Shown: positions 3,001-6,000 of the stretch, piece after piece
Layout: the number at the start of each line of letters is the position of its first letter
Position numbering within the stretch: the first letter of the stretch is position 1
Assembly: GCF_003790525.1 (NCBI RefSeq)
Contig: NZ_CP033635.1
Strand: one strand, 5' to 3'
DNA: 64,000 nucleotides
From: Escherichia coli
GTDB taxonomy: Bacteria > Pseudomonadota > Gammaproteobacteria > Enterobacterales > Enterobacteriaceae
Program-made: the position numbers

Positions 3001-6000
3001 ACACTTCATTCGCCCCGCCGTGTTTCGGCCCGCGCAGTGCGCCAATCGCGCCGATAATCGCTGAATACATGTCAGAGCCGGTGCCCGCAATCACCCGGCT
3101 GGTAAAGGTGGAGGCGTTAAACTCGTGTTCGGCGTACAGCACCAGCGAAATATGCATCGCCTTTTCCCAGCTTTGCGACGGCTTTTCACCATGCAGCAGA
3201 TGCAGGAAATGACCGCCTATAGAATCGTCATCGGTTTCCGGCTGGATGCGTTCGCCGTTGTGGCTGTAGTGATACCAGTAGAGAAGAATCGAGCTCAGCG
3301 ACGCCAACAGTTTGTCGGCAATATCACGCGCGCCGGAGACGGTATGCCCCTCTTTTTCTGGCAGCGTGCAGCCGAGCGCGGAAACGCCGGTGCGCATAAC
3401 ATCCATCGGGTGTGACGCCGCCGGTAAGGCTTCCAGCACGGTACGCACGTTAGCCGGTAAACCGCGCAGGGCTTTCAGTTTCGTTTTGTAGGCGGCGAGT
3501 TCGTCACGGGTCGGCAGTTTGCCGTGGATCAGCAGATGCGCTACTTCTTCAAATTCGCAATGTTCCGCCAGATCAAGAATGTCGTAGCCGCGGTAATGCA
3601 AATCATTGCCGCTTTTACCCACGGTGCAGAGCGCTGTATTGCCCGCCGGAACGCCAGAAAGCGCCACCGATTTTTTCGGTTTAATGACATGGGTACTGTT
3701 TTGCAGGATCGTTGTGTCGCTCATGTTGTCCTCGTCATTTGTAGGGTCGAGATATTTTTCGTTGTGTTTTATTTCGCCTGGTTACGGGCAAACAGGTCGT
3801 CGAGCTTCTCTTCGTACTGGTAGTAGTTGATGCTTTCGTACAGCTCGTTGCGGGTCTGCATGGTGTCGATGACGCTTTTCTGCGTGCCTTCCTGACGCAG
3901 GACGTTGTAGACATGTTCGGCGGCGCGGTTCATGGCACGGAACGCTGAAAGTGGGTACAGCGCCATTGCGACATGGGCGCTGCGTAATTCGTCGGTGGTA
4001 AACAGCGGTGTTGCGCCAAATTCGGTAATGTTGGCGAGGATTGGCACCTGCACCGCATCAGCAAACTGGCGGTACATGGCGAGTTCGGTAATCGCCTCCG
4101 GGAACAACATCTCGGCACCCGCTTCAACATAGGCCTGCGCGCGCTCGATCGCGGCGTCCAGCCCCTCTACCGCCAGCGCATCGGTGCGCGCCATGATCAC
4201 AAAATCAGGATCGGTTTTCGCATCCACCGCCGCGCGGATCCGATCCACCATCTCCTCTTTCGAGACGATCGCTTTGTTCGGACGATGACCGCAGCGTTTC
4301 GCACCAACCTGATCTTCAATATGCAATCCTGCCGCACCGGCTTTAATCATCGATTTCACGGTGCGCGCCACGTTAAAGGCCGAAGAACCAAAACCGATAT
4401 CCGCATCCACCAGCAGCGGCAGCGAACAAACGTCGGTAATACGGCGAATGTCAGTCAGCACATCATCAAGAGTAGAAATACCGAGATCGGGCAGCCCCAG
4501 CGATCCTGCCGCCACGCCACCGCCGGAGAGATAAATCGCCTGATATCCGGCACGCTGCGCCAGCAGCGCATGGTTAGCGTTGATGGTGCCAACAATTTGC
4601 AACGGGGTTTCTTTGCTAAGTGCAGCGCGAAACGCTTTACCTGGAGAGTGTAGAGACATAGCCCATCCTTTGTTATCAACTTGTTATTTGCGTTGATAAA
4701 GACAAAGCAATGAGTGTGCCACAATTGCCTTAATAAAATTAAACATTTAATTTCAATGAGTTAAAGATAAAGTCATGAAGTAATCCGCAAATATGCGTTT
4801 CAGTTAACGTTTCAGGCAATGTTTCACCGCGTTTCATTGCAACAATTATGAAACAAGACTAAACCCAATATTCGGTTTCTTAACTTTGCGGTGCGCTATG
4901 GCACATCCACCACGGCTGAATGACGACAAACCGGTTATCTGGACAGTATCGGTGACGCGCCTGTTCGAGCTGTTTCGCGATATCAGCCTCGAGTTTGATC
5001 ACCTGGCGAATATCACCCCTATTCAGCTTGGCTTTGAAAAAGCGGTGACCTACATCCGCAAGAAACTGGCAAACGAACGCTGCGATGCCATCATCGCTGC
5101 TGGCTCTAACGGCGCGTACCTGAAAAGCCGCCTGTCAGTGCCAGTTATTTTGATTAAACCGAGCGGCTACGATGTATTACAGGCACTGGCAAAAGCCGGA
5201 AAACTCACCTCTTCTATCGGCGTTGTCACTTATCAGGAAACTATTCCGGCACTGGTGGCGTTTCAAAAAACCTTTAATTTGCGCCTCGACCAACGTAGCT
5301 ACATTACCGAAGAAGACGCGCGCGGGCAGATTAACGAGCTGAAAGCTAACGGCACCGAAGCGGTGGTCGGCGCGGGGCTGATTACCGATCTGGCAGAAGA
5401 AGCCGGAATGACCGGAATTTTTATCTATTCCGCCGCCACCGTACGCCAGGCATTCAGCGATGCGCTGGATATGACGCGCATGTCGTTACGCCATAACACT
5501 CACGATGCCACCCGCAACGCCCTGCGTACTCGTTACGTGCTGGGCGATATGCTCGGTCAATCACCACAGATGGAACAGGTACGGCAGACTATTTTGCTGT
5601 ATGCCCGCTCCAGTGCGGCGGTGTTGATTGAGGGGGAAACGGGGACGGGCAAAGAGCTGGCGGCCCAGGCGATTCATCGGGAATATTTTGCCCGCCACGA
5701 TGCGCGACAGGGCAAAAAGTCGCATCCGTTTGTTGCCGTCAACTGCGGGGCGATTGCTGAATCTCTGCTGGAAGCGGAGCTGTTTGGCTATGAGGAAGGA
5801 GCGTTTACCGGCTCGCGACGTGGAGGTCGCGCCGGGCTGTTCGAAATTGCCCACGGCGGTACGCTGTTTCTGGATGAGATTGGCGAAATGCCGCTACCTT
5901 TGCAGACTCGCCTGTTACGGGTGCTGGAAGAAAAAGAGGTCACCCGCGTCGGCGGGCATCAGCCTGTTCCGGTGGATGTGCGAGTCATTAGCGCCACTCA

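Follow-up and report, generated by a model that had tools for sequence, protein, structure and literature searches.

Positions 4660 to 4897 of the window, by which we mean the whole 64-kb stretch of Escherichia coli DNA that was analyzed and that is 100% identical to E. coli SMS-3-5, are almost certainly the known divergent switch through which E. coli controls its propionate (2-methylcitrate cycle) genes. They form the intergenic region between prpB, encoding methylisocitrate lyase (3769-4659, minus strand) and heading the prpBCDE operon, and the divergent prpR (4898-6484, plus strand, with its ATG at 4898), encoding a sigma54-dependent, 2-methylcitrate-sensing enhancer-binding protein. The prpB open reading frame matched NCBIfam NF008455 at 560 bits and prpR matched NF011953 at 1010 bits, with a cut-off of 703 bits for the latter, and the RefSeq annotation, for prpB that of the identical SMS-3-5 locus, agrees with both; the cognate enhancer-binding protein is thus encoded next to a sigma54 promoter, and the first-pass annotation of this stretch as the prpR/prpBCDE control region holds. 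Every motif listed in that annotation was found as well, with coordinates that were off by 1 to 2 bp.

The promoter and the motifs of the putative activator sites and of the candidate site for a bending protein are real and were previously known, and confirming these motifs brings no novelty. The regulatory model of the region has been set out before (PMC5566544, PMC9452892, PMC10101121), and genetic work has established that PrpR, sigma54, and IHF are all required (PMC5566544). The motifs, their clustering and conservation, and the gene identities given below come from our analysis, while the literature supplies the sigma54 occupancy (K-12), the PrpR consensus (Salmonella footprinting), and the finding that the region depends on IHF, sigma54, and CRP; the PrpR consensus, the IHF dependence, and the CRP site are drawn from secondary sources (PMC4987338, PMC5566544, PMC9452892, PMC10101121). 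The region is a standard case of a ligand-sensing sigma54 activator and underlies the widely used propionate-inducible pPro expression vectors as well as propionate biosensors.

PrpR half-sites and the sigma54 promoter

The putative PrpR enhancer (upstream activating sequence, UAS) at 4796-4855, which spans -102 to -159 relative to the prpB +1, consists of six hexamer half-sites matching the PrpR consensus. GTTTCA occurs on the plus strand at 4797-4802, 4809-4814, 4821-4826, and 4831-4836, and its reverse complement TGAAAC at 4849-4854, with start-to-start spacings of 12, 12, 10, and 18 bp; a degenerate half-site, TGCAAC, lies on the plus strand at 4838-4843. The four GTTTCA motifs and a palindrome, GTTTCAT-N10-ATGAAAC (4831-4837 and 4848-4854), were all present as previously claimed. 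The window holds 43 matches to GTTTCA or TGAAAC, five of them packed into a 58-bp stretch in the prpR-prpB region, whereas among 300 dinucleotide-preserving shuffles the biggest 60-bp cluster comprised three matches in 3 shuffles, one or two in all the others, and never more than three.

This clustering, together with the identity of the repeats as half-sites of the PrpR consensus CGTTTCATGAAACG, supports the earlier suggestion that the array is an enhancer for PrpR. The consensus derives from Salmonella footprinting (Palacios & Escalante-Semerena 2004, as tabulated in PMC4987338). Set against it, the E. coli region has the (C)GTTTCA/TGAAAC half-site five times in exact and once in degenerate form, and the contiguous 14-bp palindrome is missing. 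The distal spaced dyad, GTTTCAT-N10-ATGAAAC, is there and is conserved. Since PrpR has been footprinted in Salmonella only (Palacios & Escalante-Semerena 2004, cited in PMC4987338), and since the proximal site there is the compact palindrome that E. coli lacks, the presumed occupancy of the E. coli direct repeats by PrpR is an extrapolation.

Similar half-site clusters precede prpR in most of the other Enterobacterales and Burkholderiales loci examined. Of the 13 other full-length PrpR loci (L002-L014) among the matches listed, 11 have a half-site cluster upstream of prpR; L007 and L009, in which prpB does not adjoin, had no clear cluster, and the Xanthomonas locus L015 had degenerate copies only. 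Three Enterobacteriaceae loci retrieved through their exact protein sequence (L084-L086) have such clusters too, and, among the matches listed, clusters stand beside prpR in E. albertii, Citrobacter, Kluyvera, Photorhabdus, and most Oxalobacteraceae/Burkholderiaceae loci. In E. coli, a 67-bp enhancer segment was at least 99% identical (effectively zero mismatches) in 4653 of 5220 records. The PrpR scan of genome contigs gave no Salmonella among the matches listed, the best 120 matches of a protein search were almost all E. coli, and the Salmonella-type loci were obtained by a metagenome scan for CGTTTCATGAAAC...GTTTCAT-N11-TGAAAC, in which two members, L096 and L097, are unrelated loci. This set is unusable for estimating the frequency of the palindrome, because the scan pattern contains it by construction.

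The exact TGGCAC-N5-TTGC element that had been noted on the minus strand upstream of prpB was found at 4721-4707 (TGGCAC-ACTCA-TTGC, TGGCACACTCATTGC), with its GG at -25/-24 and its GC at -13/-12. It is the sole match in 64 kb, at a chance expectation of 0.21, and at least one match occurred in 19 of 100 shuffles, so the motif by itself is not significant and its position carries the weight: TGGCACACTCATTGCT lies at 4721-4706 on the minus strand, in the right orientation and near the prpB start, with the GG and GC 10 bp apart. Among the matches listed, every Enterobacterales locus has TGGCAY-N5-TTGC upstream of prpB, as do those beta- and gammaproteobacterial loci in which prpB adjoins prpR. 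The K-12 ortholog, TGGCACACCCCTTGC, is bound by sigma54 in ChIP-seq (peak OS01 at prpB, 17-fold above the threshold; PMC4591121), a Salmonella LT2 sigma54 ChIP-chip site corresponds to the window element (PMC3844500), a gSELEX peak was recovered at prpR/prpB, and dependence on rpoN (ntrA) has been demonstrated in Salmonella (PMC5566544). The sigma54 element of the window is orthologous to both the K-12 OS01 and the Salmonella LT2 sites.

Placing the start 12 nt downstream of the -12 C, a rule used in PMC4591121, we infer a prpB +1 at 4695 and a predicted leader of 36 nt (CAACGCAAAUAACAAGUUGAUAACAAAGGAUGGGCU; 4660-4695, minus strand) with the Shine-Dalgarno sequence AGGA. The same rule gives a 36-bp distance for K-12 prpB, whose start is marked 'P' (predicted) in EcoCyc according to PMC4591121, and a literature search for an experimentally mapped E. 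coli prpB start found none.

The IHF-like site and the prpR promoter

The string TTCAATGAGTTAA, which had been described as an IHF-like site at 4751-4763, does exist, at 4752-4764. The candidate site TTTCAATGAGTTA (4751-4763, plus strand; -56 to -68) lies in a spacer of 77% A+T and agrees with WATCAANNNNTTR at 12 of 13 positions; because one-mismatch matches to WATCAANNNNTTR are frequent (80 in the 64-kb window), the motif is not significant alone. Across the Escherichia/Citrobacter alignment its CAAnnnnTTA core does not vary and keeps its position, and several Citrobacter-type loci have a one-mismatch match at an equal distance from the enhancer, while a scan of the Salmonella-type spacer for WATCAANNNNTTR with at most one mismatch gave no match. 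IHF dependence of the prp genes is known genetically from Salmonella (PMC5566544), and in E. coli IHF presumably uses an A+T-rich element of the spacer, with a putative bend at or near 4751-4763.

The enhancer stops 44 bp short of the start codon of prpR, so the promoter of this gene has to overlap the enhancer, and both PrpR occupancy and the reported CRP control would thereby bear on prpR expression; the first-pass annotation mentioned neither this overlap nor the CRP control. A sigma70 promoter scan for prpR detected no consensus; a guess combining a -35 TTGCAA (4838-4843) with a -10 TAAACC (4861-4866) was weak, and we do not claim it. No CRP core (TGTGA-N6-TCACA-like, at most 3 mismatches) was found within 4660-4885, nor any credible site in the enhancer, and the only such matches in the prpR-prpB region have 3 mismatches and lie across the start codon of prpR, at 4890-4905. 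A CRP site in the prpR-prpB region was reportedly described by Lee et al. in 2005.

A conserved block in the prpB leader

The leader contains a direct repeat resembling an ArcA box, TTGTTATCAACTTGTTAT (4670-4687, plus strand), in which two TGTTA elements are arranged as TGTTA-N6-TGTTA with 11-bp spacing at +9 to +26 of the prpB transcript. This arrangement occurs once in the 64 kb, where 0.09 occurrences are expected. Scored with an ArcA position weight matrix rebuilt from 115 published ArcA boxes, the repeat reached 16.1 bits, as did a second match, TTGTTTCATAATTGTTGC (4856-4839, minus strand), which overlaps the distal PrpR dyad and the presumed prpR promoter zone. These are the top two scores of the whole window, both inside the 238-bp region, and the third belongs to the published betT box. 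The leader box was present at the same position (+7 to +9) in all 19 Enterobacteriaceae leaders examined, with scores of 12.4 to 19.2 bits, and the Salmonella-type ones scored higher, at 18 to 19 bits, despite changed bases between the repeats. The second match is conserved in other Enterobacteriaceae, with scores of 9.8 to 16.4 bits.

ArcA is a general repressor of carbon-oxidation pathways (PMC3798270), and Park et al. (2013; PMC3798270) reported that prpR rose 2.9-fold in an arcA mutant and predicted, upstream of this gene, an ArcA site scoring 15 bits or more. A tentative reading of these data, rather less likely than not, is that 4670-4687 is an ArcA-P operator that blocks elongation or promoter escape at +9 to +26 and keeps prpBCDE off when respiration is limited, and that at 4839-4856 ArcA-P competes with PrpR and represses prpR; it would be an extra layer on the main model, not a replacement for it. 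Speaking against ArcA, the same study found no ArcA ChIP peak at the prp region, which is missing from its tables (PMC3798270), and the main text of another genome-scale study, on ArcA/Fnr redox regulation, does not mention prp. Moreover, the species set comprises few independent lineages, retrieved in part by the biased pattern, and the score of the second box may arise solely because the PrpR half-site TGTTTC resembles the ArcA repeat element. The leader block also harbors an exact IHF core, TATCAACTTGTTA (4674-4686), one of four exact matches to WATCAANNNNTTR in 64 kb. As an ArcA box, the TGTTA repeat of the leader is a modest lead from motif scoring. If ArcA does control the region, anaerobiosis would silence both prpR and prpBCDE whatever the level of 2-methylcitrate, and prp-based sensors with an ArcA-like leader operator would be oxygen-dependent, which is relevant in the gut.

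A joint proposal combines direct redox control by ArcA, acting at the leader box and at the box over the distal PrpR dyad and prpR promoter, with a separate change in which the proximal palindrome became three direct repeats in Escherichia, the PrpR half-sites being usable either way; we entertain it with more doubt than belief. That the leader block is conserved for reasons other than ArcA, for instance as a translational enhancer, unstructured and A/C-rich, just ahead of the Shine-Dalgarno sequence, or as a second IHF site, seems rather unlikely. Consistent with the former, the leader is predicted to be unstructured and every Enterobacterales leader among the matches listed has UAACA repeats directly before the Shine-Dalgarno sequence, those of Photorhabdus being spaced 22 nt apart and not 11, and the exact IHF core is in line with the latter; Salmonella-type leaders, however, lose the IHF core and keep both TGTTA elements, and nothing specific points to a translational enhancer. 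Binding of CsrA or Hfq to the A/C-rich leader was dropped as a candidate, since the sequence lacks a second GGA and a sustained ARN repeat.

The 8-bp inverted repeat that the first-pass annotation had interpreted as a 5'-UTR hairpin is exact (TTATCAAC-N11-GTTGATAA; arms at 4673-4680 and 4692-4699, with an 11-nt spacer) and begins at 4673, not 4671, but its acting as a prpB hairpin that affects translation or stability is very improbable. The arms are perfectly complementary, the isolated 36-nt segment folds at -6.8 kcal/mol (z = -4.9), Escherichia keeps the arms while the spacer varies from 10 to 11 nt, and Citrobacter has 6 to 7 of the 8 pairs around a 12-nt spacer; however, the predicted +1 at 4695 falls within the upstream arm (4699-4692), so that CAAC is all that the RNA retains of the 5' arm, and the predicted transcript folds at -3.5 kcal/mol (z = +0.26), no better than shuffles. 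The -6.8 kcal/mol hairpin is possible only with a transcription start at least 4 nt further upstream. In Salmonella-type leaders the arms read CATC...TTTAC, unpaired and without compensatory change, L091 has one disrupted arm, and no Rfam family matched, the sole return being a chance snoRNA (E = 0.65). Conservation of the downstream arm needs no pairing, because this arm coincides with the conserved direct repeat. Given the cut stem, the z score of the transcript, the lost pairing, and the Rfam result, we rejected the leader hairpin.

Proposed course of activation

In the main model of PrpR-dependent activation, sigma54-RNA polymerase would form a closed complex on TGGCAC-N5-TTGC (4721-4707). 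Propionate, converted to 2-methylcitrate, would activate PrpR on the GTTTCA/TGAAAC half-site array at -102 to -159, and bending of the A+T-rich spacer by IHF at or near 4751-4763 would allow the PrpR oligomer to touch the polymerase. ATP hydrolysis by PrpR would then open the promoter and yield a prpBCDE transcript starting at about 4695, with a 36-nt unstructured leader. The prpR promoter, overlapping the enhancer, would link prpR expression to PrpR occupancy in addition to the reported CRP control.

Comparison with known systems

The prp control region of Salmonella enterica LT2 was reportedly characterized by Horswill and Escalante-Semerena in 1997 and by Palacios and Escalante-Semerena in 2000 and 2004. 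Like the window, LT2 has a divergent prpR-prpBCDE layout with an A+T-rich spacer, a TGGCAY-N5-TTGC element about 36 to 37 nt upstream of prpB, a distal PrpR dyad GTTTCAT-N10-ATGAAAC adjoining prpR, and the TGTTA-N6-TGTTA element in the leader. The promoter-proximal PrpR site is said, in the 2004 work of Palacios and Escalante-Semerena, to be the higher-affinity one. In Salmonella- and Citrobacter-type loci this proximal site consists of the compact palindrome CGTTTCATGAAACG with TGACAC after it, whereas the left half of the palindrome is eroded in E. coli and E. albertii, which instead have three direct TGAAAC repeats 12 bp apart, at -131, -119, and -107. Kluyvera retains a degenerate palindrome, CGTTTTGTGAAACG, which rules out its sharing the E. 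coli layout. The replacement of the palindrome by three direct repeats in Escherichia suggests that the PrpR oligomer accepts half-sites whichever way they point. Citrobacter-type loci have 11 bp more, and Salmonella-type loci 25 bp more, between enhancer and promoter than E. coli, and the inverted repeat of the leader is found in Escherichia and Citrobacter and is missing from Salmonella-type sequences. The output of the E. coli prp system is roughly threefold weaker (PMC5566544), a difference that the missing compact palindrome may underlie; an E. coli enhancer without this Salmonella consensus PrpR site could matter to promoter engineers.

The leader block and the ArcA box of Park et al. 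(2013; PMC3798270) both consist of two TGTTA repeats with an 11-bp centre-to-centre distance, and the 16.1 bits of the former are close to the published mean of about 15 bits; unlike those boxes, the leader block is a predicted one, with no in vivo occupancy at prp in that study.

The K-12 prpBp of Bonocora et al. (2015) represents the same locus with the same enhancer and an identical leader, and most E. coli genomes share the 67-bp enhancer unchanged. The sigma54 spacer is ACTCA in the window strain (SMS-3-5 type) and also in Nissle 1917, as opposed to ACCCC in K-12, and a few substitutions surround the IHF-like site, where N4 is TGAG in the window and TTTG in K-12. It is the K-12 prpBp that Lee and Keasling reportedly used in 2005 in the pPro expression vectors.

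Finally, NtrC at glnHp2 and NifA at nifH exemplify the classical IHF-assisted sigma54 enhancer promoters. With these the prp region shares a -24/-12 promoter and, as proposed, an activator site more than 100 bp upstream and an IHF bend near -60. It differs in that its activator senses a ligand, 2-methylcitrate, instead of being controlled by phosphorylation, and in that its six-hexamer array also overlaps the promoter of the regulator's own gene.

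Identity of the locus and variation in E. coli

The open reading frames flanking positions 4660-4897 are prpB (3769-4659, minus strand; NF008455, 560 bits) and the divergent prpR (plus strand, ATG at 4898, end at 6484; NF011953, 1010 bits), with prpC and prpD also in the flank, and the stretch is therefore the complete prpB-prpR intergenic region. The 361 bases around it were 100% identical to those of E. coli SMS-3-5, and 5218 of 5426 complete E. coli genomes contained a match; of 5220 E. coli records, 4653 carried the 67-bp enhancer segment at 99% identity or higher. Nine of 5221 control-region matches were plasmid-borne, not chromosomal, and at least one genome carried two copies. 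Polymorphism within E. coli relative to K-12 was concentrated at 4711-4715, the nonconsensus spacer of the sigma54 element (ACTCA in the window versus ACCCC in K-12), and at 4757-4766, in the N4 positions of the IHF-like site and its flank; essentially no variation was seen in the enhancer or the leader box. Nissle 1917 has the same promoter and leader allele as the window.

For comparison, we used a protein-based genome scan (among the matches listed, E. albertii, two Citrobacter, two Photorhabdus, several Oxalobacteraceae/Burkholderiaceae, and a Xanthomonas), three further Enterobacteriaceae loci retrieved via exact protein sequence (Kluyvera, C. koseri, and C. amalonaticus), and Salmonella-type sequences from a metagenome pattern scan, identified by the exact LT2 sigma54 site.

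Sigma54 promoter, PrpR enhancer, and candidate IHF site

All the motif strings described in the first-pass annotation were confirmed to be present, and its main reading, a sigma54 promoter served by a PrpR enhancer through IHF-assisted looping, is right and was known before: prp regulation requires PrpR, sigma54, IHF, 2-methylcitrate, and CRP, according to summary statements in PMC5566544, PMC9452892, and PMC10101121. The sigma54 element upstream of prpB, TGGCACACTCATTGC at 4721-4707 (minus strand), is the sole TGGCAC-N5-TTGC in the 64 kb. One match also occurred in 19 of 100 shuffles, so a single match is not rare by chance and the value of the element lies in its position. In K-12 sigma54 ChIP-seq, prpB is the first intergenic peak (OS01), with the motif GTGGCACACCCCTTGCT and a predicted start at a distance of 36 bp from prpB; EcoCyc lists it as "predicted" (PMC4591121). 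The rule used for K-12 prpB, 12 nt after the -12 C (PMC4591121), puts the predicted +1 at 4695, 36 nt from the prpB ATG. The sigma54 ChIP-chip site in Salmonella LT2 is TGGCATAGCCTTTGCTTT (PMC3844500), and the prpR/prpB spacer was also recovered by gSELEX.

The four GTTTCA motifs were found as plus-strand copies at 4797, 4809, 4821, and 4831, with a complement at 4849-4854. Five of the 43 GTTTCA/TGAAAC copies in the whole window thus lie within 58 bp, while the biggest 60-bp GTTTCA cluster in 300 dinucleotide-preserving shuffles never exceeded three. A repeat finder recovered the GTTTCAT/ATGAAAC palindrome, its arms 10 nt apart. Footprinting in Salmonella gave the PrpR enhancer consensus CGTTTCATGAAACG (listed in a table of PMC4987338), of which GTTTCA is the half-site. 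Among the matches listed, TGGCAY-N5-TTGC lay upstream of prpB in every retrieved locus in which prpB adjoins prpR, and GTTTCA/TGAAAC clusters adjoined prpR in most full-length PrpR loci, which supports the repeats as a predicted PrpR enhancer, as had been proposed.

The 13-mer TTTCAATGAGTTA at 4751-4763 differs from the IHF core WATCAANNNNTTR at a single position (12 of 13 match), but hits this close are frequent, with 80 across the window. Its CAAnnnnTTA core at 4753-4763 was invariant in the Escherichia/Citrobacter alignment, and several Citrobacter-type loci had a one-mismatch match similarly far from the enhancer; none was found in the Salmonella-type spacers. Spacer A+T was 64-85% in all loci compared. 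Use of the predicted site by IHF is plausible.

A search for a CRP core with up to three mismatches inside the enhancer and one for a prpR sigma70 consensus gave no match to which the reported CRP site or the prpR promoter could be assigned. A near-perfect palindrome, AAACCCAATATTCGGTTT, lies at 4861-4878 between the enhancer and the prpR start codon and could be part of the prpR promoter or 5' UTR. The adjoining ACTAAACCC was invariant in Escherichia and Citrobacter, and the region is altered in Salmonella-type sequences.

Predicted ArcA boxes and the prpB leader

Beyond this model, the remaining, minor points of interest are ArcA-like boxes and an Escherichia-specific loss of the proximal palindrome. 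An ArcA box consists of two repeat elements 11 bp apart (Park et al. 2013, PMC3798270). We rebuilt the ArcA matrix from 115 of the boxes listed there and scanned the 64-kb window. The two best scores, tied at 16.1 bits, both fell in the prp control region: a predicted leader box at 4670-4687 (plus strand, TTGTTATCAACTTGTTAT) and a predicted distal box at 4856-4839 (minus strand, TTGTTTCATAATTGTTGC). The third-ranked hit, ATGTGTCTTAATTGTTAC (minus strand, 24376-24393; 14.5 bits), corresponds to the betT box published by Park et al. (Table S3), which places the bet locus in the window as well, at about 19.7 kb of distance from prp.

The leader box is a TGTTA-N6-TGTTA direct repeat, found once in the window (0.09 expected); its complement, ATAACAAGTTGATAACAA, was invariant in Escherichia, Citrobacter, and Kluyvera leaders. 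A box was present at +7 to +9 in all 19 Enterobacteriaceae leaders examined (12.4-19.2 bits), scoring highest in Salmonella-type sequences despite differing bases between the repeats, although the species compared represent few independent lineages. In Photorhabdus, the spacing between TTGTTAT copies is 22 bp. In Park et al., prpR was 2.9-fold up when arcA was mutated and a site scoring 15 bits or more was predicted upstream of prpR, but no ArcA ChIP peak was seen at the prp control region (PMC3798270); prp was not found in the main text of another genome-scale redox-regulation study. The distal match could simply reflect how closely the PrpR half-site resembles the ArcA repeat, and the leader block also holds an exact IHF core. 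ArcA control as an addition to the main model is a reasonable but unproven proposal, to which we give somewhat less than an even chance. Alternatively, the leader block may be conserved for an RNA-level reason.

The 5'-UTR hairpin proposed for this leader was not supported. The 8-bp inverted repeat TTATCAAC/GTTGATAA exists, with arms at 4673-4680 and 4692-4699 (slightly off the 4671 first assigned), but a hairpin needs both arms in the RNA and the upstream arm straddles +1, which counts against it. The predicted transcript, from 4695, folded at -3.5 kcal/mol (z +0.26); the -6.8 kcal/mol (z -4.9) of the isolated 36-nt segment 4703-4668 would be possible only if transcription began 4 nt or more upstream of that position. 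Both arms are altered without compensation in Salmonella-type leaders (CATCTTGAATAACAATTTACTAACATGAGG), and an Rfam search matched no family.

Enhancer architecture across groups

Array positions are counted from the predicted +1, in the prpB sense. Escherichia has GTTTCA at -159, a degenerate GTTGCA at -148, and TGAAAC at -141, -131, -119, and -107. The Citrobacter-/Salmonella-type array shares the distal three, followed by the compact palindrome CGTTTCATGAAACG and a degenerate TGACAC, so that both layouts have six hexamers; the palindrome pattern was itself used to choose the Salmonella-type set, which is therefore biased toward having it. Kluyvera retains a degenerate palindrome, and some Burkholderiales arrays have three or four direct repeats and then inverted ones.

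In two metagenome contigs (L107 and L108), the prp intergenic sequence is preserved as far as CTGACACGCTTTA, with both PrpR sites included, and then gives way to unrelated sequence without the sigma54 promoter or prpB; this suggests an insertion or rearrangement separating prpR from prpBCDE. A third, nonenterobacterial GC-rich contig (L096, Ga0070684_100093057) carries tandem CGTTTCATGAAACGTTTCATCGTG copies beside a TCTGTA microsatellite, so that the PrpR-like palindrome is found there in a setting that seems unrelated.

In the alignment, Escherichia shows a decayed left palindrome half, ATTGCC, and a new TGAAAC 12 bp upstream creates three direct repeats at 12-bp spacing. In Salmonella, PrpR reportedly has a higher affinity for the promoter-proximal site. 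If this difference holds, E. coli would lack the high-affinity proximal dyad. The E. coli prp system is described in a passage of PMC5566544 as threefold weaker, and the absence of the dyad may be related to this difference.
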